Shown here: piece by piece, positions 2-41,848 of the stretch
Layout of the letters: every line of letters begins with the position of its first letter
How positions within the stretch are numbered: the stretch's first letter is position 1
Source of the DNA: an uncultured Gammaproteobacteria bacterium
Lineage (GTDB): Bacteria; Patescibacteriota; Microgenomatia; CAZETR01; Amesbacteraceae
Direction: 5' to 3'
NCBI GenBank assembly: GCA_964543035.1
Contig: CAZIVL010000001.1
Coordinates: 236,159 to 300,158, forward strand
Length of the DNA stretch: 64,000 nucleotides
Made by a program: the position numbers and the translations under genes
The notes under the pieces: generated by a model
What the model saw: only the letters and a program-made list of their open reading frames with translations
Told to the model about the DNA's origin: nothing
Database searches by the model: none

Positions 2-1762
2 GGCCGTGCCGCCTTTGGATATCTGGCCTCAGATATTGATTGTGGATTCAAATTATTTAGGAGGGATATTCTCAAACGAGTTTCTCTTCCATCTGACGGA
101 GCAATGGTAGATACCCAGCTTTTTGCCGGAGCCAGGGCCCGGGGCATGAAAGTGGCTGAACTAGAAGTGACACATCTCCCCAGGACCGCAGGCAGTTCAA
201 CTGGAGGTAATTTCAAGGTGGCGGCCAAAGCAGGACTCGAGTTGCTCGCTTTCTGGTGGCAATTAAAGCAGGAAATCATGGTGGAGCAGGGGAGAGCAGT
301 GTTCCGCTGGGAAGCGATTTGGATCTTGCTCATTATCTTAGGTGGAGGGTTCTTGCGTCTATGGCAAATTGATCAGCACATGACTTTTTTGGGTGACGAA
401 GGTCGCGATGCCATCGTCATGCGCGAAATGGTCCTGGGAAATCATTTTCCCCTCATAGGCCCCGGCACTTCCATTGGCAACATGTACCTAGGCCCCCTCT
501 ATTACTATTTGATGGCTCCTTCTCTGGCTTTGGCAAGCGAGTCCCCTGCTGGTCCCTCGATATTTGTAGCCTTGATAGGTCTTGCCACCATTGGGCTTTT
601 GTGGTGGATTGTACGTCAATGGACGGGCAGAACTGCCGCCCTAGTTGTCTCTGCACTTTATGCCATCTCACCGACTATCATCACCTATTCCCGCTCATCA
701 TGGAATCCCAACGTCATGCCATTTTTCGCCCTTCTTACTATATATAGTGTCTGGAAGGTGAGTGCTCTTGGGTACTGGCGCTGGGCAGTCATTGGTGCTG
801 TCTCTTTCGCATTTGTGCTCAACTCTCATTATCTGGGCTTGATACTCGCTCCTGTGGTGGCCATCTTTTTGTTTTTTTCCAAAAAAAGCCCATCTTCTCC
901 CAGATATTTAGCCCTCTCAGCCGCCGCCTTTATTTTATTGATGAGCCCTCTGTTCTTCTTTGACCTCAGACACAACTGGATAAACACCAAGGCAATGACG
1001 CTATTTTTTACAGATCGTCAGACAACGGTCAATCTCAAAGCCTACAAAGCGATCCCCAATCTCTGGCCCATCTGGTTGGATTTCAATGCCAGTATGTTTG
1101 CCGCCAAAGACAGGTCCCTGGGCCTAGTTTCTGCAATCGCCGTCCCCGTTTTGCTCATAATATTTGCCCTAAAAAATTCCCAAAAGCTTCGCTCCAAAGA
1201 TTTTCTTTTGACAGTTTCGTGGCTTGGCGTGGGTCTAATAGGTCTCGGCCTGTACAAGCAGCACATTTATGACCACTACATGGGCTTTATATTTCCGGCG
1301 GTTTTTATCCTCCTGGCATACAGCCTAGATTATCTTTTGCAAAAAAAAATCACAGCCAAAATCGTGGGACTGGTCTTTGTATTTTTGTTGTTTCACAATC
1401 TTTCTCGCACTCCACTTCTGTCTGCCCCCAACCATCAGTTAGACCGGACCCGCCAGGTCGCAGAGCTAATTCACGAGGAGACAGCAGGTAGACCTTTTAA
1501 CTTGGCACTTCTGGCCAAGTCCAATTACGACGCCAGTTACAGATATTTTCTCTACCAAAACAATTCACCTCTTTTTACGGTTCATCAGCAGATCACAGAC
1601 CAGCTCTATGTCATCTGCGAGATCTCCAATTGTCAGCCCATAGGGAATCCTCTCTGGGAGATCGCCGCTTTTGGCTGGGCCAGGATTGATAGGGAATGGG
1701 AGTTCCCCTGGGGGGTCAAGGTCTATCGTCTGATACCCAATCCAGAGGGAAAAAGCTTATGA
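2..1762 (+). CDS. 5'-partial fusion protein: C-terminal part of a DPM1/GtrB/ArnC-like GT2 polyprenyl-phosphate sugar synthase fused to a polytopic GT-C-type membrane domain
   Basis: The frame is open from nt 2 with no stop. The N-terminal segment reads ...CGFKLFRRDIL...THLPRTAGSSTGGNFKV..., typical of the DPM1-like GT2 C-terminus. It continues without interruption into TM helices and a DEGRDAIVMREM...GPGTS...YY loop motif shared with the CDSs at 1759, 3206 and 19365. The first ATG is at 104, but the reading frame enters from upstream of the window. Confidence 0.6.
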   Translation, partial: GRAAFGYLASDIDCGFKLFRRDILKRVSLPSDGAMVDTQLFAGARARGMKVAELEVTHLPRTAGSSTGGNFKVAAKAGLELLAFWWQLKQEIMVEQGRAVFRWEAIWILLIILGGGFLRLWQIDQHMTFLGDEGRDAIVMREMVLGNHFPLIGPGTSIGNMYLGPLYYYLMAPSLALASESPAGPSIFVALIGLATIGLLWWIVRQWTGRTAALVVSALYAISPTIITYSRSSWNPNVMPFFALLTIYSVWKVSALGYWRWAVIGAVSFAFVLNSHYLGLILAPVVAIFLFFSKKSPSSPRYLALSAAAFILLMSPLFFFDLRHNWINTKAMTLFFTDRQTTVNLKAYKAIPNLWPIWLDFNASMFAAKDRSLGLVSAIAVPVLLIIFALKNSQKLRSKDFLLTVSWLGVGLIGLGLYKQHIYDHYMGFIFPAVFILLAYSLDYLLQKKITAKIVGLVFVFLLFHNLSRTPLLSAPNHQLDRTRQVAELIHEETAGRPFNLALLAKSNYDASYRYFLYQNNSPLFTVHQQITDQLYVICEISNCQPIGNPLWEIAAFGWARIDREWEFPWGVKVYRLIPNPEGKSL

Positions 1763-3216: not shown

Positions 3217-4648
3217 GTCCATACTCATCTGCATAGTCTTACTCGCCTTGTTTGCCAGGTCATATCAGCTAGTGGAGAGGTTTGCCTATGATCATGATTC
3301 CGATCTCTCAGCCTGGATTTTTAAAGACATTGTCATTGATGGACACCTAAGGCTCATTGGCCAGCAGACATCATCATTGGGTCTTTTTATAGGTCCTCTC
3401 TTTTATTACTCACTCATCCCCTTTTACCTGGCCACGAATCTAGATCCCATCGGCACCTCAGTTTATCCCATAATTGTAGGTGTAGTCGGGGTCTTGAGTC
3501 TGTATTTTGTCACAGCCAAAACTACTGATAAAAAAACTGCTTTCTTTGCAGCTCTCATTTATGCCGGCTCTTTTTCTATCAGTAACACCGAACGGCAAGT
3601 CGTACCCACTGCCTGGATATTTGTTTGGTCCATCTGGTTTATCTACTCAGTACACCTTATTTATCAAGGAAAGAAGCTTGGACTCACTATCGCTGCTGTA
3701 TTACTGTCTCTGGTCTGGCATATCCAATTAGTGCTTGTGATTGCCGCAGTTCCCATGGGTATTGCCTGGATTTCGCGGTTCAAATCGTTTAAATTCAGAG
3801 ATTTTATTTTGCCGGTAGCGCTTCTAGTTATCATCTCAACCCCCCTGATTTTATTTGAGCTGCGTCACGATTTCATTCAGTTCAGGTCTTTATTCTTTTC
3901 GTCTCAGGTGGCAGAACAAGTTTCTCGAACATTAGCCCAAAAGTCGCTACATGTTTTGTCAGTTGCGGCAAAAAATGCCAATGCCATTTTTTGGGTTCGC
4001 CCAAACAATATTCCCGACTATGTTCTCCCCTTAGTAATTCTGATGGGATCAGGGATACTTTTGGTCAGAAAAAAGATATCCCGTCAATTGGTGTTAACTT
4101 TTGTTTTGTGGTTTGCAGTATTTATTGGTTTTTTTATCTTTCATCACATCAATCTTTCTGAGTACTACATCAACAGTCTGAACATTATGTGGATTATTTT
4201 GGCGGCGCTCGTGCTATCAAGACTTGGCAAATTAGGCAGTATTCTGCTAGTTGTTTTTTTGTTTTACAACCTTTACATAATAATTACTCTCCCTATAAAT
4301 CGTAGCGGTTATCTAAACAGAGTAGCAATGGTGGACTACATAGCAAAGGATGCAAAAGAACATAAGTTTCCTTGTATCGCCATCTCGTTTATGACCAATC
4401 CCGGTTATGAACTAGGGTATAGATATTTGTTCTGGCAGAAAAAAATGCATGTCAATCGCCCAAGTAGTAATAGCCCTGTCTACACAATTGTTTTTCCCCA
4501 CGGCCGGGCCAATCGTCTGGACTATACGAGTGGTGCTCTTGGACTGGTTCTGCCAGATTATTCTCGTTATAATGAATCCGGAGTAAGAGACAGTTGTTCA
4601 GGTGAGAACTCCAACGTTACTGATCCCATGTTTGGTTTTACAAAATGA
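3206..4648 (+). CDS. polytopic membrane glycosyltransferase, GT-C superfamily (DxxRDA family paralog)
   Basis: 480 aa hydrophobic protein. Motif DHDSDLSAWIFKD...GQQTSSLGLFIGPLFYY aligns with the neighbouring paralogs. 11-nt overlap with the upstream gene. Confidence 0.65.
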   Translation: MKNKSILICIVLLALFARSYQLVERFAYDHDSDLSAWIFKDIVIDGHLRLIGQQTSSLGLFIGPLFYYSLIPFYLATNLDPIGTSVYPIIVGVVGVLSLYFVTAKTTDKKTAFFAALIYAGSFSISNTERQVVPTAWIFVWSIWFIYSVHLIYQGKKLGLTIAAVLLSLVWHIQLVLVIAAVPMGIAWISRFKSFKFRDFILPVALLVIISTPLILFELRHDFIQFRSLFFSSQVAEQVSRTLAQKSLHVLSVAAKNANAIFWVRPNNIPDYVLPLVILMGSGILLVRKKISRQLVLTFVLWFAVFIGFFIFHHINLSEYYINSLNIMWIILAALVLSRLGKLGSILLVVFLFYNLYIIITLPINRSGYLNRVAMVDYIAKDAKEHKFPCIAISFMTNPGYELGYRYLFWQKKMHVNRPSSNSPVYTIVFPHGRANRLDYTSGALGLVLPDYSRYNESGVRDSCSGENSNVTDPMFGFTK

Positions 4649-5400: not shown

Positions 5401-6153
5401 ATGAGTCCAAAACTGTCCATCGTTATCCCGGCTTACAATGAAGCAAAAAGCTTTCGATCTGGCATGCTGGACTCGGGCCTAGATTATCTCAAGTCGGTCA
5501 ATTATTCTTACGAAGTATTGTTTATAAACGATGGCTCGACCGACGACACGAAAGAACTTCTCGAGGGTCTCGCAAAAAAAGACAAACATTTCAAAGTCAT
5601 CACCATAAATCACGGAGGCAAAGCCAGTGCCGTCACGGCTGGAGTTCTGGCGGCCCAAGGCGAAATAGTATTATTTACCGACTTTGATCAATCCACTCCT
5701 CTGTATCAGGCAGAATCTTTTTTGAGATCTCATGATCTGGGGTCAGATGTCGTGATTGGGGTTAGGGGTGGGGGAGTAAGCACCAAGCAAGACACCTGGG
5801 TCAGAAAAGTCAGAAGTGCAATCTTTGTCACCCTTGTTCAGATTATTGCCCTGCCAGGAATCATTGACACTCAATGTGGCTTCAAGTCCTTCAAAAACGG
5901 TCTTGCCAAAAAAATATTTTCCAGTCTCAAAGTAAGCTTGCCTACTGGTGTAGTAACGGGAGGCTATATGGGGGCCTTTGATGTCGAAGTTCTCTTTTTG
6001 GCTCGCAAATACGGAGCAAATATTGCCCAGATCCCAGTCACCTGGATCAAATATCCCTCAGACAGATTAAATATCTGGAAGGAACCACTCCAAATGCTCA
6101 TCGATACAATCAAGGTCCGCCTCTGGGGTATACTAAGAAAGTACGATGCTTAA
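5401..6153 (+). CDS. GT2 glycosyltransferase, DPM1/GtrB-like (tandem paralog of 4645..5394)
   Basis: LSIVIPAYNEAKS, VLFINDGSTDDT, TDFDQSTP, QCGFKSF. Tandem duplicate of the preceding gene. Confidence 0.8.
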   Translation: MSPKLSIVIPAYNEAKSFRSGMLDSGLDYLKSVNYSYEVLFINDGSTDDTKELLEGLAKKDKHFKVITINHGGKASAVTAGVLAAQGEIVLFTDFDQSTPLYQAESFLRSHDLGSDVVIGVRGGGVSTKQDTWVRKVRSAIFVTLVQIIALPGIIDTQCGFKSFKNGLAKKIFSSLKVSLPTGVVTGGYMGAFDVEVLFLARKYGANIAQIPVTWIKYPSDRLNIWKEPLQMLIDTIKVRLWGILRKYDA

Positions 6154-7642
6154 GAAGTCTATTTTTATTTGTTTCCTGATCGCAGCAGCAGCAATCTTTT
6201 TACGTCTATACAACGTGGGTTTATGGCCTGTTTTTGCTGATGAATCCATCTATGTACGCTGGTCCCAGGTCATGCGGGCCGAAAGCACCCTCAGATTTCT
6301 TCCACTTTCCGATGGTAAACAGCCTCTGTTTATGTGGGCGACCATCCCCTTTTTCAAAATTATTTCCGATCCACTAGTGGCCGCCCGTTTTTTGTCAGCT
6401 CTTACCGGAATTTTTACAACTGCAGGCATAGCCCTTCTTTCTTGGCTAACTCTAAAAAATCTTCGCATCACATTCTGGACAGCCGCGATCTGGGCGACTG
6501 TTCCCTACTCAGTTTTTTTTAGTCGCATGGCTTTGGTAGATAGCATGCTCTGTATGTTTATCGTATGGGGATTGAGCCTAAGCGTTCTATCTATTCAAAA
6601 ACAGCGCTTAGATATGGCCATGATAGCCGGATTCTTTTTTGGGTTCGCGTGGCTCACAAAATCTCCCGCCACCATTGCCCTGATGTTATTACCTTCAGTA
6701 CTAATTTTTATCCCTCACAAAAATCTAAAAACTATTCTGTATTCACTATTCTATATTCTTACCCCAATCTTAATTGCCTTTGGCATGTACAACATCTTGC
6801 GCTTAGGCCCTGAGTTTCATCAGATTGCTTTGCGAAATGCCGATTATGTCTTTACTCTGCCTGAGATTCTAAAACACCCCCAAGATCCATTACTCCCTCA
6901 CCTTAAAGATAGTGTCACGTTTTATTTATATCTCCTCACACCTTTTGGTGTTTTATTGTCTTTGTGGGGTATATTGGCTGGGGGCAAATCGCACGTCTGG
7001 ACCAAGCTATTTTTTGGGCTTTGGTTTTTGCTACCCATCATTGCACTATCAGCCGTAGCCCGTGCTTTTACCGCCCGATATATTCTCTTTACAGCGCCTT
7101 TTGCCGTGATTCTGGCTGCTCACGCCGTGGAGCATATAGGCCAGCACACCAAAAGACACTTACTCTCAGCCCTGACTGGAGCCTTGATCATAATTCCTTC
7201 TCTTTGGATTGATCATCTGATGCTGACAAATCCTGCGAATATGCCCATGGCCAGGATTGAGCGCTCCGGGTATCTAGAAGAGTGGACTGCCGGGTTCGGG
7301 CTCAAAGAAGTATCTGCTCGCATTCAAACAGCGGCCGAAAAACGTCCAGTTATAGTGGGGTCTGAGGGTTTTTTTGGCACTCCATTTGACGGACTCCAAA
7401 TGTATCTCAACGGTGTACCAAATGTTCGAGTAATTGGAGTCGGAGTCTGGATAGACTCAGTCCACGAAAAGTTAATCAACGCCTCGGTCGAAAACCAGAT
7501 ATTTTTAGTGGTCAACTCCAGTAGGTTCCATCACGAAAAACCAGAAGATTTGGGACTCAAACTTTTGGCCAGCTACCCAAAGGCTGTTCGCCCAGATGGT
7601 ACCCAGGAATATTTGTTGTTTTTTGAATACATACCAAAATAA
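6146..7642 (+). CDS. ArnT/PMT-like GT-C membrane glycosyltransferase (GT83/GT39-like)
   Basis: 498 aa polytopic protein. N-terminal ADESIYVRWSQVMRAE...GKQPLFMW resembles the ArnT DE-motif loop. It follows two Und-P-sugar synthase-like GT2 genes, an ArnC-ArnT-like arrangement. Confidence 0.7.
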   Translation: MLKKSIFICFLIAAAAIFLRLYNVGLWPVFADESIYVRWSQVMRAESTLRFLPLSDGKQPLFMWATIPFFKIISDPLVAARFLSALTGIFTTAGIALLSWLTLKNLRITFWTAAIWATVPYSVFFSRMALVDSMLCMFIVWGLSLSVLSIQKQRLDMAMIAGFFFGFAWLTKSPATIALMLLPSVLIFIPHKNLKTILYSLFYILTPILIAFGMYNILRLGPEFHQIALRNADYVFTLPEILKHPQDPLLPHLKDSVTFYLYLLTPFGVLLSLWGILAGGKSHVWTKLFFGLWFLLPIIALSAVARAFTARYILFTAPFAVILAAHAVEHIGQHTKRHLLSALTGALIIIPSLWIDHLMLTNPANMPMARIERSGYLEEWTAGFGLKEVSARIQTAAEKRPVIVGSEGFFGTPFDGLQMYLNGVPNVRVIGVGVWIDSVHEKLINASVENQIFLVVNSSRFHHEKPEDLGLKLLASYPKAVRPDGTQEYLLFFEYIPK

Positions 7643-7647
7643 TACAA

Positions 7648-7677
7648 TGTCATCCTGAGTGTAAGCGAAGGATCCAG
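7648..7677. repeat. degenerate, internally deleted copy of the palindromic element (tgtcatcctgag...aagcgaa..ggatcca) in the 5' leader of the 7683 CDS
   Basis: Shares the left terminal repeat tgtcatcc(t/c)ga, the aagcgaa core and ggatcc with the full copies at 8167..8225 and 40495..40564. It lacks the right terminal repeat. Confidence 0.35.
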
Positions 7678-7682
7678 TCTTT

Positions 7683-9395
7683 ATGAAAAAAGACCTTTTA
7701 ATTTTATTAATTCTTATCATCCCCAGCTTTGCAATTTTGTTGCAAAAGGGTTATTTCTCCATGCACGATGATCTTCAGTCCATGCGCCAGTACCAGCAAG
7801 ACTTGTGTTTTGCAGACGGCCAGATCCCCTGTCGTTGGGTGCCGGATATGGGTTATGGTTACGGCTACCCTTTGTTCAATTTTTACCCCCCACTTCCATA
7901 TCTCTTAGGACAACCGTTACGTCTTTTAGATATCTCTTACATCGACATTGTAAAGATTGTGGGAATTATGGGTTGGGTCAGTTCAGCAGTCTTCATGTAT
8001 CTTTTGGGGCGAGAGTTTTGGGGGCGAAGAGGGGGATTAGTCTCGGCAGTCTTTTATACATATGCTCCTTATCATTCGGTTGATTTTTATGTCCGGGGAG
8101 CCATGAATGAGTTTTGGGCCCTAGTCTTCTACCCCGCCATTTTTTATAGCACTTATCGCCTCATATTGTCATCCCGACCAAGCGAAAGCGCGTGGAGGGA
8201 TCCCTCGACCCGGCTCGGGATGTCAAGCGTGAACGTGAAGTGGATTGTATTCACGTCTCTCTCCGTCACAGGTCTCATGCTTTCTCACAACCCCATGCTC
8301 ATGATCTTCGCCCCGGTTCTCATCGGCTGGTGCCTGCTCTGGCTGATAAAGTTTAAAACCATTCAACCATTTGGCCATTTATCCATTGCGGCCATATGGT
8401 CCGCAGGCCTGGCCGCCTTCTTCACTCTTCCGGTCGTTTTTGAGCAGCAGTTTGTCAGCATCTGGACACTCACCTCAGGATACTTCAATTATCTGGCTCA
8501 CTTTTTGGACATCAAGCAGATTTTTATAAATATCAATTGGGGTTATGGATCATCTGAGCTGGGACCTACTGACAGCATGTCATTTGCCATTGGTTACTTG
8601 CACTGGATAGTGCCATTGGTAATCTTGATTTTTTCCCTTACAAAAAAACTTCGGCCATATATAGCCATAATTCTTTATTCCATATTCATAATTCTTGTTT
8701 CTCTATTTATGTCACATTCAAAATCGACGTTTTTATGGCAGCATCTAAGACCCCTGGAGTTGCTACAGTTCCCCTGGCGTTTTCTGACTTTGACCATTTT
8801 TGGAGCCTCGTTTGCTGCAGGAGCCATTGCTCCAGCCGTAAACAAAAAATTATTGCTCACAGCACTTATAACCTCAGTCATAATACTAAATGGTAATTAC
8901 TTTCGTCCCAGGGATTGGTATCCAGATATGACTGACCAAGCAAAGTTTTCCGGCAAGTCGTGGCAACTTCTTGTTACCTCTGGCATCTTTGATTACTTAC
9001 CCATCTGGGCACCATTCCCCCCGGCAGACCCAGCCGGCGCTGACTTAAACATAGTTCAAGGCGAAGGGGAGTATACCCGAGTTCTAAAATCATCCAATAA
9101 GCAGGTTTATAAAGTCGATGTTATTTTGGACTCAGCCACAATTGAACTGCAGACATATTACTTTCCCGGTTGGCGGGCATATGTAGATGGAGTAGAACAG
9201 CAGATTGACCCCACTCGCGACCCTCTTTTGGGGCGCATCCAGGTCGACTTGTCTTCTGGATCCCACCAAGTTGAGATCCGGTTTACAAACACCCCGATTC
9301 GTCTCCTTGCAAACTCCCTATCTGTCATCTCCTGGGCGGCAATGGTTGGTATAATAATTGTATGGATGTGGAGGAGATCTCTTCTGAAGAGTTAA
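7683..9395 (+). CDS. YfhO-like polytopic membrane protein (GT-C-like), short-form family B
   Basis: 570 aa with many TM helices. N-terminal periplasmic motif MHDD...CRWVPDMGYGYGYPLFNFY is shared with 35412..37031. C-terminal YFPGWRAYVDG...terminal TM signature is shared with the 767-aa YfhO-like protein at 20783..23086. Confidence 0.6.
   Translation: MKKDLLILLILIIPSFAILLQKGYFSMHDDLQSMRQYQQDLCFADGQIPCRWVPDMGYGYGYPLFNFYPPLPYLLGQPLRLLDISYIDIVKIVGIMGWVSSAVFMYLLGREFWGRRGGLVSAVFYTYAPYHSVDFYVRGAMNEFWALVFYPAIFYSTYRLILSSRPSESAWRDPSTRLGMSSVNVKWIVFTSLSVTGLMLSHNPMLMIFAPVLIGWCLLWLIKFKTIQPFGHLSIAAIWSAGLAAFFTLPVVFEQQFVSIWTLTSGYFNYLAHFLDIKQIFININWGYGSSELGPTDSMSFAIGYLHWIVPLVILIFSLTKKLRPYIAIILYSIFIILVSLFMSHSKSTFLWQHLRPLELLQFPWRFLTLTIFGASFAAGAIAPAVNKKLLLTALITSVIILNGNYFRPRDWYPDMTDQAKFSGKSWQLLVTSGIFDYLPIWAPFPPADPAGADLNIVQGEGEYTRVLKSSNKQVYKVDVILDSATIELQTYYFPGWRAYVDGVEQQIDPTRDPLLGRIQVDLSSGSHQVEIRFTNTPIRLLANSLSVISWAAMVGIIIVWMWRRSLLKS
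8167..8225. repeat. GC-rich palindromic mini-element, copy 1, inserted in-frame in the 7683 CDS (encodes ...SAWRDPSTRLGMS...)
   Basis: Terminal inverted repeats tgtcatcccga at 8167-8177 and tcgggatgtca at 8215-8225. Internal 12-nt perfect palindrome gagggatccctc at 8195-8206. About 60% GC in a roughly 40% GC gene. The host protein carries a roughly 22-aa insertion relative to its paralog 35412 at this site. Confidence 0.6.
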
Positions 9396-33294: not shown

Positions 33295-33838
33295 GCTATT
33301 ATATTTATTACCGCTTATTTTTGTCATTGGAGCTCAAAGCTTGGTCTCACTATTCATAAAAAATAAAATTGATTATTCTATAGACGGATCCCTAGCATAC
33401 CCCCTCGAAAAGCCTATGCAAACCAGCTATGCTCCTACACACGCGGGTCTAAACATAATTGTCTTGCGTCTAAAAAACCCCGCTCTTGCCGATGAAAACA
33501 AGTACACATTGAAGCTTTTAAGTGGGAGCGATACTGTGATCAAATCGATCGATTTTGACGCCAGAAATGTGGGAGATCCCGCCGACCTTAAACTTCAGTT
33601 TGATCCATTGGTAAATTCCCAAGAGATTCGGTCCATAAGGCTCGAGCCTGTGGGAACATCTGGAAAATTACACGTATACATTGACGAGAAGGACCGAATC
33701 TCTTTCACTTCTTATTACCGTCGCTCTGGGTTCTCGTTATCATGGCCAGTCTTAAAAGATATTCCCTTCTTTGTCGCCTGGGCGATAGTACTTACGACCA
33801 TTTTTTATTTTAGTACCAAATGGCAAAAACAATCTTAG
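33287..33838 (+). CDS. small bitopic membrane protein, unknown function
   Basis: 183 aa. N-terminal TM or signal sequence (MNKLLYLLPLIFVIGA), a roughly 130-aa hydrophilic domain, then a C-terminal TM. The ORF track lists a longer out-of-context start at 33158. ATG 33287 overlaps the upstream stop (atgaataa). Confidence 0.5.
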   Translation: MNKLLYLLPLIFVIGAQSLVSLFIKNKIDYSIDGSLAYPLEKPMQTSYAPTHAGLNIIVLRLKNPALADENKYTLKLLSGSDTVIKSIDFDARNVGDPADLKLQFDPLVNSQEIRSIRLEPVGTSGKLHVYIDEKDRISFTSYYRRSGFSLSWPVLKDIPFFVAWAIVLTTIFYFSTKWQKQS

Positions 33839-38574: not shown

Positions 38575-40175
38575 CAAAAAAGTTGATCATTATTTTTCTG
38601 ATTTTCAGTTTGGGTCTTGGCTTACGCTTGTTCAAGCTCGATATTCGCCCAATAGGATTTACCTGGGATGAGGCAGCTTTAGGCTACAACGCCTATTCGT
38701 TATTTTTGACTGGCCGCGATGAGTATCGAGTGATTTTCCCCGTAGTCCTCAAATCGTTCGGAGATTACAAACCAGGACTCTATGCTTATCTGACTGCTCC
38801 ATCTGTGGCTTTTATTGGTTTGAATGAGCTTGCCACTCGCTTGCCTTCAGCCGTATTAGGATCACTTTTAGTACTCACAGTTTTTCTACTTGCTGGTCTA
38901 TTATTTTCGTATCGAGTTGGCATGTTTGCGGCCATTCTACTGGCCATCAATCCCTGGGCCATTCACTTTTCCCGGGGTGCCTGGGAAGCAAATCTGAGTC
39001 TGTTTCTCACCACCCTCGCCGTCACCCTATATCTAAAATCATACAAAATTCAAAATACGAGATACATGATGCTGTCCTCACTACTCTTCGGCCTGACTTT
39101 TTGGAGTTACCAAGGGGCAAAGCTTATGACTCCTCTCGTCATACTCAGTCTTTTGGTCTTATTTAGACCAAAAAAGATAGTTGTTGTCCCCTGGATTATT
39201 TTTCTAGCAGTCATTTCTCCTGTCATTATTGGTCTCAAAGATCAATCGGGTAGATTACAGGTTTTGAGTTTGTTTAATTACACCAGGTCGCATGAATCGA
39301 TATCTAGGATACAGGATCAAGAGGGTAGTACTAGCCCAGCCTGGGTATTTTCTTTGTTTCACTCCGAGTTGCTCGATCAGACGAGAGGAATTGTGGAGAG
39401 GTATCTAAATCATTTCTCTCCCAGATATCTGTTTTTTGAAGGGGACTGGTCAAACTTAAGGCACACAACCCCTTACTATGGATATTTTCATATCCCAGAG
39501 ATTATCTTTATTTTGGTGGGACTAGTTTATTTGCTAAAAAAGCCCTCTCCTCAGTCGCTCTTAATATTCTTTTGGTTGGTGTTCTCGCCACTGGCTGCCA
39601 GTATCTCCCGGGACATTGTATCGGGTGTTCGCAGTCTGCCTATGGTCATCCCGCTTACTATTGTAGGGGCAATTGGTTTGGCAAAAATTTCTTCAAAAAA
39701 AATTATTTTCTTAAGTCTTTCTCTATCGATGCTATTTTTTGTAGTGTATTACTTAGATTTATATTATGTCCACGCCCCCCATTATTCCGCTTCTGCCTGG
39801 CTGTATCCGTACAAAAGAGCCATCCAGCTGCTAAACAACAATATCAATAGCTATGACCGCGTAATTTTTACCAACACCTTGGGTCAACCTTATATTTACA
39901 TACTTTTTTACAACCAGGTCCACCCTAAGCTTTATCAGCCCTGGGCGAAGCTTCAAGAGAGTAAATCTCAAGACGTGGGCGAAGTAGTGGCCTGGGACAA
40001 ATATTTGTTTCGAAAAGTCGACTGGCCAGCCGAAAGGGGCAGTCACTCAACCATCTTCGTGGGCAATCAGTATGAACTACCAGAACAAGATATGAATCCA
40101 GCGCATCTGGTGCGCTTAGGGGAGATAGAATATCCAAACGGTTTACATGCATTACGGATTGTTGGACTAAAATGA
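38571..40175 (+). CDS. PMT_2/GT39-like GT-C membrane glycosyltransferase
   Basis: TWDEAALGYNAYSLFLTGRDEY...SFGDYKPGLY. ATGA overlap. Confidence 0.8.
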   Translation: MTKKLIIIFLIFSLGLGLRLFKLDIRPIGFTWDEAALGYNAYSLFLTGRDEYRVIFPVVLKSFGDYKPGLYAYLTAPSVAFIGLNELATRLPSAVLGSLLVLTVFLLAGLLFSYRVGMFAAILLAINPWAIHFSRGAWEANLSLFLTTLAVTLYLKSYKIQNTRYMMLSSLLFGLTFWSYQGAKLMTPLVILSLLVLFRPKKIVVVPWIIFLAVISPVIIGLKDQSGRLQVLSLFNYTRSHESISRIQDQEGSTSPAWVFSLFHSELLDQTRGIVERYLNHFSPRYLFFEGDWSNLRHTTPYYGYFHIPEIIFILVGLVYLLKKPSPQSLLIFFWLVFSPLAASISRDIVSGVRSLPMVIPLTIVGAIGLAKISSKKIIFLSLSLSMLFFVVYYLDLYYVHAPHYSASAWLYPYKRAIQLLNNNINSYDRVIFTNTLGQPYIYILFYNQVHPKLYQPWAKLQESKSQDVGEVVAWDKYLFRKVDWPAERGSHSTIFVGNQYELPEQDMNPAHLVRLGEIEYPNGLHALRIVGLK

Positions 40176-41848
40176 AAAAAATACTGCTTATCTTTATTCT
40201 GATCTTGGCTTCAGTTTTGCGTTTGTATGATCTGACTTCTTATCCATCAGGGCTAAATGCCGACGAAGCAGCCTTGGGTTACAACGCTTACTCCATCATG
40301 CTGACCGGGCGCGATGAACATGGGCATTTTCTGCCTATCAACCTTGAATCATTTGGCGATTTCAAGCCCGCCCTTTACTCGTATCTTCTTATCCCGTTTA
40401 TCAAAGTAATGGGTCTGACTGAGCTTGCAGTCCGTCTCCCCTCAGCCATTTTTGGGATACTGGCCGTTTTGTTTATATATTTACTTACCAATCTTGTCAT
40501 CCCGACCGATCCTGAGCCTGCCGAAGGAGAGCGGAGGGATCCCTCGACTCCGCTCGGGATGACAGCTGGGCATGTAGCTGCATTACTTTTGGCAATTTCT
40601 CCTTGGCATCTCCACTTTAGCAGGGGAGCATGGGAGGTCAATGTCGCCACAACCCTTTTATTAATCGGCGTGTGGTTGTTTCTCCGTTGGGCCAGACTCA
40701 AAAATAATTGGTCCATATTTTTTTCGATCTTTTGTTTTTCATTGTCTATGTACACCTATCAATCAACCCGAATTATAGCCCCGCTTATTGGTCTAGGACT
40801 GGCAGCGATTTATTTTAAGGATCTGGCCAGCCGCCCAAAACTAATAATACTTAATTTATTATTTACTTTGATTCTATTATCCCCTCTGGCCTACAACGTA
40901 CTCACCACCGATTCAGCATCTAGATTTTCAGGTGTAGGTTTTACAGCAGACGAGGGTCCCCTCAACCGTATCAAAGAATTTCGTGGCCAACACTCAAATC
41001 CTGCAAGCATAATGGCCCGAATCCTTCACAATCGTGTAGTTATATATTCAATCCAGTTTGCAAAAAATTACCTCGACCATTTCGGAGGAAACTTCTTGTT
41101 TGTAAACGGGGACATCATCCAGAGAAATCGTATTCCAGAGACCGGCCTTCTCTATCTCACCGACTTTATATTTGTAGTTCTCGGACTAATATACTTGATA
41201 CAAAACCTGTCTGCCGGCAGGCAGGGTACTAAATACAAAATACAAGTTATTTTATTGTGGCTTCTCATAGCTCCCATTGCTGCTGCTCTCACCTTTCAGA
41301 CACCCCATGCACTGAGATCCCAAAACATGATAATTCCCATCACGATCCTTACAGCCGCGGGGATCTATTGGATTATAAAAAGATGGCAGACAATCGGGGG
41401 AGTAATTTTAGTTATTTTTTACTTATTCCAGGTGACTAGATATATTCATCAGTACTATGTCCATTATCCAAAAGAGTATCCAGCAGCCTGGGAATTTGGA
41501 TTCAAAGAGGTGGTAGCATATGCCGAGTCTAAAAAAGAAGAGTATGACCGCGTGCTTGTTACCGACAAATATGACCAGCCGTACATTTTGTTTCTGTTTT
41601 ATTCAAAATATCCACCCCACTTGTTTCAAGGACAGCACCAGCTGACAGTCAGAGACAAGTTTAACTTTTCGACTGTCAGAGACTACGACAAATACCATTT
41701 TGAGTCGACTCCCTGGGACAAAGTGCGAGATAATCACTCCAGTCTGATTATAGCCGCTCCAGAGGATATACCAGCAGAAGGGGTAAATGTCGTAAATACG
41801 ATATATTTCCCAAATGGGGAGGAAGCGTTTAAGATAGTCTCAAACTAG
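40172..41848 (+). CDS. PMT_2/GT39-like GT-C membrane glycosyltransferase carrying an in-frame palindromic element insertion
   Basis: NADEAALGYNAYSIMLTGRDEHG...SFGDFKPALY. ATGA overlap. A roughly 20-aa insertion (IPTDPEPAEGERRDPSTPLGMTAGH) relative to its five paralogs coincides with repeat copy 2. Confidence 0.8.
   Translation: MKKILLIFILILASVLRLYDLTSYPSGLNADEAALGYNAYSIMLTGRDEHGHFLPINLESFGDFKPALYSYLLIPFIKVMGLTELAVRLPSAIFGILAVLFIYLLTNLVIPTDPEPAEGERRDPSTPLGMTAGHVAALLLAISPWHLHFSRGAWEVNVATTLLLIGVWLFLRWARLKNNWSIFFSIFCFSLSMYTYQSTRIIAPLIGLGLAAIYFKDLASRPKLIILNLLFTLILLSPLAYNVLTTDSASRFSGVGFTADEGPLNRIKEFRGQHSNPASIMARILHNRVVIYSIQFAKNYLDHFGGNFLFVNGDIIQRNRIPETGLLYLTDFIFVVLGLIYLIQNLSAGRQGTKYKIQVILLWLLIAPIAAALTFQTPHALRSQNMIIPITILTAAGIYWIIKRWQTIGGVILVIFYLFQVTRYIHQYYVHYPKEYPAAWEFGFKEVVAYAESKKEEYDRVLVTDKYDQPYILFLFYSKYPPHLFQGQHQLTVRDKFNFSTVRDYDKYHFESTPWDKVRDNHSSLIIAAPEDIPAEGVNVVNTIYFPNGEEAFKIVSN
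40495..40564. repeat. GC-rich palindromic mini-element, copy 2, in-frame inside the 40172 CDS
   Basis: Perfect 11-bp terminal inverted repeats tgtcatcccga (40495-40505) and tcgggatgaca (40554-40564). Internal gagcggag..ctccgctc stem and gagggatccctc palindrome. It shares about 30 nt (ggagggatccctcgac.c.gctcgggatg) with copy 1. Confidence 0.6.

Follow-up and report, generated by a model that had tools for sequence, protein, structure and literature searches.

A hairpin repeat at three sites

We analyzed a 64,000-nt stretch of contig CAZIVL010000001.1 (positions 236,159 to 300,158; assembly GCA_964543035.1; Patescibacteriota, Amesbacteraceae), which we will term the window, and in it a short palindromic element, which we will term the H repeat. 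The H unit is a 26-nt hairpin module. A search with a covariance model that was built on 91 distinct modules, all taken from other genomes, matched only three sites in the window (an insertion in a gene leader and two in-gene copies), which thus has five modules. The first host gene (7683..9395, + strand, 570 aa) encodes a PTPS_related/YfhO-like membrane glycosyltransferase of the GT-C type, as indicated by the Pfam matches of a paralog in the window (PF10131 and PF09586). The second host gene (40172..41848, + strand, 558 aa) encodes a PMT_2-like GT-C glycosyltransferase whose orthologs match PF13231. A preliminary description of this DNA, which was made from the sequence alone, regarded the two genes as non-homologous; they are in fact distant GT-C homologs (hhalign E = 1.6e-4), and their insertion loops are not structurally equivalent.

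That description also reported a GC-rich palindrome of about 60 nt with terminal inverted repeats, and this holds for what we will call copy 1. Copy 1 (8167..8225, unstranded) is a 59-nt palindromic doublet with a GC content of 64% (vs. 41% for the window), and it lies in frame in host gene 1, where it encodes approximately ...LSSRPSESAWRDPSTRLGMS.... Its left half-unit (8168..8202, + strand) has a loop that is widened to 17 nt (GTCATCCCGA-CCAAGCGAAAGCGCGTG-GAGGGATC; covariance-model match 8166-8204, 26.4 bits, E = 2.7e-4). Its right half-unit (8199..8224, − strand) is near canonical, GACATCCCGAGCCGGGTCGAGGGATC, and shares the GGGATCCC center with the left unit (match 8197-8226(-), 29.2 bits, E = 5.7e-5). 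Copy 2 (40495..40564, unstranded) lies in frame in host gene 2 as a palindromic doublet of 70 nt, and it encodes VIPTDPEPAEGERRDPSTPLGMT. The right half-unit of copy 2 (40538..40563, − strand) is canonical, GTCATCCCGAGCGGAGTCGAGGGATC (match 40536-40565(-), 46.2 bits, E = 4.5e-9). As we read the sequence, a degenerate third unit (40508..40529, + strand, GATCCTGAGCCTGCCGAAGGAG) is nested in the loop of the left half; it corresponds to a 20-nt indel relative to the compact form of the element.

Both in-gene copies consist of two inverted modules that overlap at the GGGATCCC center, and in each doublet, one module is canonical (on the minus strand) and the other has an enlarged loop. The copies share 84% identity across a 43-nt block, including an exact 16-nt core. 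This 16-mer (GGAGGGATCCCTCGAC) has four matches in the window (both strands of the two copies), as compared to 0.12 expected by chance. The copies also share a 12-nt palindrome, GAGGGATCCCTC, at 8195-8206 and at 40534-40545. The terminal inverted repeats are 11 nt long, with one mismatch in copy 1 (TGTCATCCCGA / TCGGGATGTCA) and perfect arms in copy 2, and can be written for both as TGTCATCCCGA / TCGGGATG[A/T]CA. When folded as single strands, the window doublets form long hairpins (z = −2.3 to −3.1). The preliminary description had proposed a prediction of the RNA fold, and for copy 1 this gave a hairpin with z = −2.6 as RNA (−2.3 as DNA). The compact 50-nt element at a related locus, L001, folds more strongly (z = −6.3).

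The leader insertion (7649..7683, + strand, 35 nt) had been described as a degenerate copy with an internal deletion. It is instead one canonical 26-nt unit at 7649-7674 (GTCATCCTGAGTGTAAGCGAAGGATC; match 7647-7676, 39.3 bits, E = 2e-7), followed by a 9-nt tail, CAGTCTTTA. The final A of this tail supplies the A of the downstream ATG start codon. In the predicted RNA fold of 7674-7700, GTCTTT of the tail can pair with codons 2-4 (AAAGAC), so that the AUG would sit in a small hairpin's loop.

A conserved and covarying hairpin

The module can be written as GTCAT-NNN-GAGCGNAGNCGA-N'N'N'-ATC, or as GTCAT-CCY-GAG-N6-CGA-RGG-ATC. The stem of the module covaries as a conserved hairpin. Positions Y8 and R21, which were left free in the search pattern, are paired in 212 of 214 copies. 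If three stem pairs are left fully free, 56 of the 60 non-redundant matches have Watson-Crick pairs, with nine types of triplet (the chance is 1/64 for each). In alignment A3, 91.8% of the cells are paired, a value that was reached in 0 of 500 shuffles, and slid registers give 13-55%.

The module is built as (T)GTCAT-stem-GA-GCGNAGNC-GA-stem'-ATC, with a covarying stem of 5 bp. Judging from the consensus, tandem sheared G.A pairs might arise within the internal 5'-YGAR-3' / 5'-YGAR-3', and a mini-loop of the GNA or GNNA type within CGNAG or C-GNNA-G. The proposed tandem G.A pairs and GNA loop refer to the DNA hairpin d(GTCATCCTGAGCGAAGCGAAGGATC). Both tandem sheared G.A pairs and GNA-type mini-loops are stable motifs in single-stranded DNA.

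Among pairs of units, convergent pairs that are spaced 30-60 nt apart predominate. The doublets are 59 and 70 nt long in the window and 48-109 nt elsewhere. We also noticed a hairpin variant, GTCATTCCCGCGAAGGCGGGAATC, with GTCAT...ATC flanks and a perfect 6-bp stem, beside an H doublet on another contig (L218, ~1270-1310, minus strand). The same variant is probably translated as ...SFPRKRES... at residues ~36-45 of an H-carrying amidotransferase (locus L234, see below).

Evidence that the window copies are insertions

Comparisons to related sequences show that all three sites in the window are insertions. The leader site is empty in the syntenic relative L002, whose host protein is 80% identical: L002 reads ...AATAATACAAT|TGAAAAA, and the window reads ...AATAATACAAT[35 nt]TGAAAAA. 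Relative to L002, the insertion lengthens the spacer from 6 nt to 41 nt (the window spacer that holds the 35-nt insertion is also given as 40 nt) and changes the start codon from TTG to ATG. At the site of copy 1, most of 50 aligned orthologs have a linker of ~5 residues, the closest relative has a different element, and the protein P0016 (locus L001) has the same element in the same loop but in the opposite orientation. For copy 2, roughly half of the orthologs, with L196 (the closest insert-free one) among them, have a short linker at the site. Copy 1 is 94% identical to the 50-nt element of L001, and copy 2 is 98% identical to it over the aligned positions, as compared to 72-79% for the DNA of the flanking genes; copy 2 also differs by its 20-nt internal insertion. 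A scan of metagenomes for the copy-1 site of the window itself in an empty state gave no match, which is uninformative.

One population shows that the element can be dispensed with and is polymorphic. In the cluster around P0016 (90% identity), a 542-aa member, P0244, has the empty allele. The contigs with the empty allele (L246) and the filled allele (L247) are ~99.8% identical as DNA, with 3 differences in 3,367 nt upstream and 6 in 1,300 nt downstream. The filled allele reads LI-LSSRAESRDPSTLVGMTPW-KWITWL and the empty allele reads LI-KDQSV-KWIPWV. Within the gene, all but one of the differences fall in a patch of ~105 nt around the element. Given this patch, the gain or loss in this pair looks like the work of a short recombination tract and not like a clean transposition. 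The clustered substitutions also lend some support to the earlier idea of a recombination hotspot.

Could the segments be ancestral, fast-evolving loops that are palindromic by accident, or chimeras of the assembly? The low copy number in the window (three sites) is consistent with this and nothing else is. We give this explanation almost no credence and consider it already refuted, because the exact 16-mer core is found in two non-equivalent loops, the copies are 94-98% identical while their flanks are 72-79% identical, other genomes contain hundreds of copies, and empty alleles exist. Also, an independent Logan assembly (L052) is identical to the window over 1,773 nt that span the leader and copy 1, so chimeric assembly is ruled out. 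As further copies exist, most orthologs lack the segment, and a sister lineage has the element in inverted orientation, the insertion into genes that was proposed in the preliminary description stands.

The insertion loops of the host proteins

In host 1, the insert corresponds to residues ~163-181, in the loop between helices 141-163 and 174-201. It adds ~19 aa (57 nt), rather than the ~22 aa of the preliminary description. An AlphaFold model of host 1 has a mean pLDDT (predicted local distance difference test) of 85.9 and a pTM (predicted template modeling score) of 0.89, and the confidence dips at the insert (mean pLDDT of 76 and 58 for the two 10-residue blocks over it). In host 2, the insert corresponds to residues ~109-131. 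Among the eight GT-C paralogues of the window that we scanned, only the two insert-bearing hosts are below the Pfam thresholds.

In both families, inserts of at least 7 aa cluster in a single loop; for host 1, 14 of 50 sequences have them, and for host 2, 28 of 51. Few of the inserts belong to the H family, which is found there in 2 of ~119 orthologs of host 1 and in 1 of 89 orthologs of host 2. A second family in the same loops is a GC-rich palindrome, CCCCTCTCC...GGAGAGGGG, with peptides like PSPxLGEGxxRGEV; it is found in at least 11 of ~119 orthologs of host 1 and in 17 of 89 orthologs of host 2. A third family is an AT-rich palindrome with the peptides FENYLRFGIQNLRIE, IKNSIQISNFKFQIE, or FENCLKIGNCKLKIE, which is present at the host-2 loop in 9 of 89 orthologs (for example, L198 10320-10390). 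As an aside, in-frame examples of the GC-rich palindrome at L002 10425-10480 and L197 5255-5340 run CCCCTCTCCT...AGGAGAGGGG, then GGGGTGAGG; the peptides are PSPxLGEGxxRGEV or PPPxLGGGWGVV, and some have extra segments nested in them.

The clustering in loops would mainly reflect a selection filter for loops that tolerate insertions. A preference for hairpins that are already present may contribute, as units are nested in copy 2 and in some of the P-type inserts. A stronger form of this idea is that the clustering reflects targeting: palindromes would enter pre-existing hairpins or the tips of cruciforms, so that an occupied loop would attract further elements and exchange them. This concerns the mode of insertion, not the identity of the element, and it is compatible with the explanation that we prefer (a selfish repeat, see below). 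Besides the degenerate unit in the left-half loop of copy 2, targeting could account for P-type inserts with nested extra segments (such as P0163 and P0184), for the different element at the copy-1 site of the closest relative, and for the variable segment in the left unit's loop of the subfamily described next, which is often itself a hairpin. It seems rather doubtful, because the empty leader site of L002 and the insert-free loops have no hairpin at the target and because no target sequence is conserved beyond the T/A ends.

In-frame copies in other genes

The subfamily that includes the window copies, with the pattern GGAGGGATCCCTCGACNNNGCTCGGGATG, was found on 47 metagenome contigs, chiefly from groundwater and sediment. 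Its layout is TGTCATCCCGACC-[4-30 variable nt, often a small hairpin]-RGTGGAGGGATCCCTCGAC-NNN-GCTCGGGATGACA, and the variable segment is always in the loop of the left unit. Many of these copies lie in frame in genes. At least seven sites in genes were verified, and we used Pfam to verify the host genes. In-frame copies are found in UvrA (L215), CysRS (L227), a class-I glutamine amidotransferase (GATase; L234 / L235), ComEC (L216), an RluD-like pseudouridine synthase (PseudoU_synth_2; L212), ribosomal protein L1 (Ribosomal_L1; L233), and the GT-C gene (L207). An alphaproteobacterial kinase of the APH family has a 75-nt doublet in frame, so in-frame copies are not confined to the candidate phyla radiation (CPR).

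Separately, contig L221 contains two divergent paralogous genes that look like surface-protein genes, each with a 48-nt element at the homologous position (2170-2260 and 3380-3470), between ...C[G/D] and [S/N]CGTLFLQ. The two elements are in opposite orientations relative to the gene.

Spread across bacteria

The exact 26-nt pattern (38 bits) matched 49 viral contigs and at least 120 contigs of species-representative genomes, as compared to ~4 matches that we estimate would occur by chance in 596 Gb. Among the matches listed, the module is present in more than 20 phyla. These include Acidobacteriota, Verrucomicrobiota, Planctomycetota, Chloroflexota, Gemmatimonadota, Bacillota, Bacteroidota, Alpha-, Beta-, and Gammaproteobacteria, Desulfobacterota, Bdellovibrionota, Cyanobacteriota, Nitrospirota, Omnitrophota, Fibrobacterota, Synergistota, Armatimonadota, Dormibacterota, and several lineages of Patescibacteria. 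Pedobacter, Dysgonomonas, and Vineibacter are among the cultured carriers. The element had no match in the plasmids of PLSDB, in complete genomes of E. coli, or in the phages of INPHARED, and its absence from E. coli, these plasmids, and cultured phages may explain why it escaped notice.

At low-GC loci, where the calling of open reading frames (ORFs) is reliable, 33 of 37 copies lie outside of long ORFs. Between tandem genes, 22 copies run against the direction of transcription and 12 run with it, which is not a significant bias, and H copies are also found between divergent genes. Across 88 doublets, conservation ends at T|GTCAT...ATGAC|A, with no conserved target sequence beyond the T/A ends and no target-site duplication beyond the level of a control with re-paired flanks.

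These patterns bear on another explanation, which is that selection keeps the hairpin for a role in mRNA. It could cause a translational pause between transmembrane helices, block RNA decay, or regulate the start codon from the leader, and its recurrence in the same loops would then reflect a benefit and not mere tolerance. Three unrelated families of palindromes do lie at the same loop in 25-55% of the orthologs of both hosts, and the stem is kept by compensatory changes; in the predicted fold of the leader, the pairing of the tail with codons 2-4 and the AUG in the hairpin loop would also fit. Still, we think that a function in mRNA is improbable. Roughly half of the orthologs lack an insert, empty and filled alleles coexist in one population, and the element is found in both orientations at the same site. 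Furthermore, copies show no strand bias relative to transcription and occur between divergent genes, soluble proteins carry the element too, and conservation of the stem is equally expected if a DNA hairpin is needed for mobility.

Two kinds of larger arrangement were also seen. The end of an IMG/VR contig (L017 8560-8980) has five tandem H-type doublets of ~76 nt each, separated by T-rich spacers, with a period of 87 nt. On seven contigs from Hainich groundwater (L202, L204, L209, L220, L226, L228, and L236), H doublets lie inside a larger inverted repeat, TGTTGAATAACTCCACC ... GATGTTATTCAACA, which hints at a palindromic element of composite structure that is present on more than one of them.

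A candidate mobilizing enzyme

When the ORFs near copies were clustered without bias, nothing recurred except for phage terminases, phage portal proteins, and ABC transporters. Distant inverted pairs of units (on L058 and L124) were considered as the ends of an autonomous element and rejected, as the ORFs between them are ordinary genes. A search with probes for IS200 and for REP-associated tyrosine transposases (RAYTs; REP stands for repetitive extragenic palindrome) gave one marginal match, and this search was insensitive, because it missed a true Y1_Tnp gene on L207.

On the contigs with the filled and empty alleles, a RAYT-like Y1_Tnp gene (PF01797, 230 aa) lies ~2 kb upstream of the host gene and has the motifs NHFHLLV and YIHRNP. 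Such genes are located at L247 1095-1787(-), L246 1560-2252(-), L249 10001-10702, L252 10001-10687, and L251 10001-10690. Members of the family are numerous in Amesbacteria and in other Patescibacteria, with a protein count above 7,600 at E <= 1e-10. The gene has the same position, between IleRS and FtsZ, in two lineages, and this points to RAYT-like behavior. The window lacks it at the syntenic spot (5401-7642). A link between this Y1_Tnp family and the H family is a hypothesis. We did not accept the Amesbacteria Y1_Tnp as the cognate transposase, as the hairpin that flanks it is a different one that is not dispersed.

Comparison to known repeats

The first group to consider is the Rickettsia palindromic elements (RPEs), of which the preliminary description had seen the hallmark here. 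RPEs are ~100-150 bp long and form Rickettsia-specific families, each with a conserved peptide of 30-50 aa (PMC10969869). The families RPE-1 to RPE-10 are those of Ogata et al. (2000), as summarized in PMC10969869. Like RPEs, the H repeat is a repeated palindrome that is found in frame in unrelated genes, including essential ones. It adds a peptide at a surface loop or linker while the protein is kept, it has non-coding copies too, and it has no transposase of its own. Unlike RPEs, the element is only 26 nt as a single unit and 48-70 nt as a doublet, so that it falls short of their size, and it differs in sequence. Also, it is found in more than 20 phyla and, outside of the CPR/groundwater subfamily, it is mostly intergenic. 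NCBIfam, which we take to include models of the RPE domain, gave no RPE-domain match in either host protein, and none of its families matched the insert regions. So the likeness to RPEs holds for the behavior of the element and not for membership in an RPE family.

Second, REP doublets forming hairpins (REPINs) are inverted doublets of an imperfect palindrome of ~25 nt; they are mainly extragenic, occur as singlets too, and make no target-site duplication (Bertels and Rainey 2011, PMC3116915; PMC3337134). REP families are lineage-specific, have tens to hundreds of copies, and, according to the RAREFAN account, are mostly inherited vertically, together with a cognate RAYT that they flank. The H repeat resembles REPINs in its unit of ~25 nt, in its inverted doublets that form a long hairpin, in its singlets, in the lack of a target-site duplication, and in the presence of a RAYT-like Y1 gene in related Amesbacteria genomes. 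It differs in that its module is conserved in sequence across phyla rather than being specific to a lineage, in that no Y1 gene is found beside any H copy (the Amesbacteria Y1 gene being flanked by another hairpin), and in that H copies are frequently translated. As to being extragenic, 33 of 37 copies are outside of long ORFs, yet two of the three sites in the window and at least seven sites of the subfamily are in genes.

[quoted passage not shown] In contrast, the H element is much shorter, has no target-site duplication, and shows compensatory variation in its stem-loop, and no parent insertion sequence with matching ends is known for it. A classical MITE of the DDE type was rejected: the terminal inverted repeats are present, but target-site duplication is at the level of the control over the 88 doublets.

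Finally, Rfam 15 gave no match in the window at the gathering thresholds; when the elements and six copy-rich loci were scanned by E-value, the matches were at the level of chance only. An intrinsic terminator was rejected, as the consensus has no T-run, there is no strand bias, and copies are found in divergent regions and in genes. In the open-access literature, we found no description of the motif, nor of palindromic or MITE insertions in CPR bacteria. Overall, the element resembles RPEs in behavior and REPINs in construction, yet it belongs to neither group. It is apparently an undescribed, widespread, and structured hairpin repeat that is often translated in CPR-type genomes.

A probable selfish repeat, presumably tolerated in genes

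The most plausible explanation for the three sites, and one that we hold with fairly high confidence, is that they belong to a selfish DNA repeat that forms hairpins and is non-autonomous, and that the in-gene copies are tolerated. Two inverted modules, which overlap here in the GGGATCCC center, make a palindrome of 48-70 nt with TGTCAT...ATGACA ends, which is the build of a REP doublet. New copies would arrive without target-site duplication, via a single-stranded hairpin intermediate that is presumably handled by a trans-acting enzyme; an enzyme of the HUH/Y1 type is the obvious candidate. Between strains, copies may be gained or lost by short-patch homologous recombination, as in the one case above. 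For a copy in a gene to survive, its net length would need to be a multiple of three and the palindrome would need to be read in a stop-free frame (two of the three frames are stop-free on each strand of this GC-rich palindrome). Also, the 16-23 hydrophilic residues that it adds would need to be placed in a tolerant loop or linker. These two conditions would explain the helix-connecting loops of GT-C proteins here and the inter-domain linkers of UvrA and CysRS elsewhere. The inserted peptide is most likely functionless.

Several observations weigh against a selfish mobile repeat. Conservation of the sequence across more than 20 phyla is atypical of REP and MITE families, and the window has only three sites. 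The sole filled/empty pair is not a clean insertion, given the ~105-nt patch of clustered substitutions. As to the enzyme, in ~1.9 Mb around ~300 copies, we found no Y1/HUH homolog with the insensitive probe search and no recurrent transposase or integrase. The Y1_Tnp gene is flanked on both sides by another hairpin, AAAGG-N5-CCTTT, which has a lineage-specific loop and is not dispersed, and no H unit lies within the 62 kb around the Amesbacteria Y1_Tnp genes (L247, L249, L251, and L252).

A broader proposal is that the copies form one undescribed, cross-phylum family of mobile repeats, whose loop and flanks stay the same, with a stem that covaries freely, because they are recognized by a single conserved and widely available enzyme or host machinery. 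In the small genomes of groundwater bacteria (CPR), this family and at least two other families of palindromes would routinely remodel essential proteins via in-frame insertion at hotspot loops. This is more tentative, and we would put its chances at somewhat below even. If it is true, then a process like that of RPEs operates far outside of Rickettsia, with gain and loss that can be seen within single populations. In-frame selfish DNA has so far been treated as a curiosity of Rickettsia, and REP-type repeats as lineage-specific; the H repeat does both of these things, in more than 20 phyla. This raises the questions of which conserved machinery recognizes the repeat and how it crosses between phyla. 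Both can be tested, because one natural population has the two alleles, filled and empty, and the same clade has candidate Y1 enzymes.

The repeats also matter for annotation: they split Pfam domains and inflate the apparent novelty of proteins from metagenome-assembled genomes, and recognizing them would improve the annotation and the alignment of CPR proteins. Presumably, H repeats also account for spurious small ORFs and for peptide motifs such as VIPSEVEGSL, SSRAESRDPS, and DPST.LGMT in the sequence databases.

Other features of the window

A perfect inverted repeat of 14 nt (AAGAGATTCGGTCC / GGACCGAATCTCTT), with 56 nt between its arms, lies in a coding region at 33621-33704. It has no second copy in the window, and the window's other inverted repeats show no sign of belonging to a repeat family. 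More broadly, 104-62301 looks like a long and mostly co-directional glycosylation cluster with several GT-C paralogues (PMT_2 or YfhO/PTPS_related).

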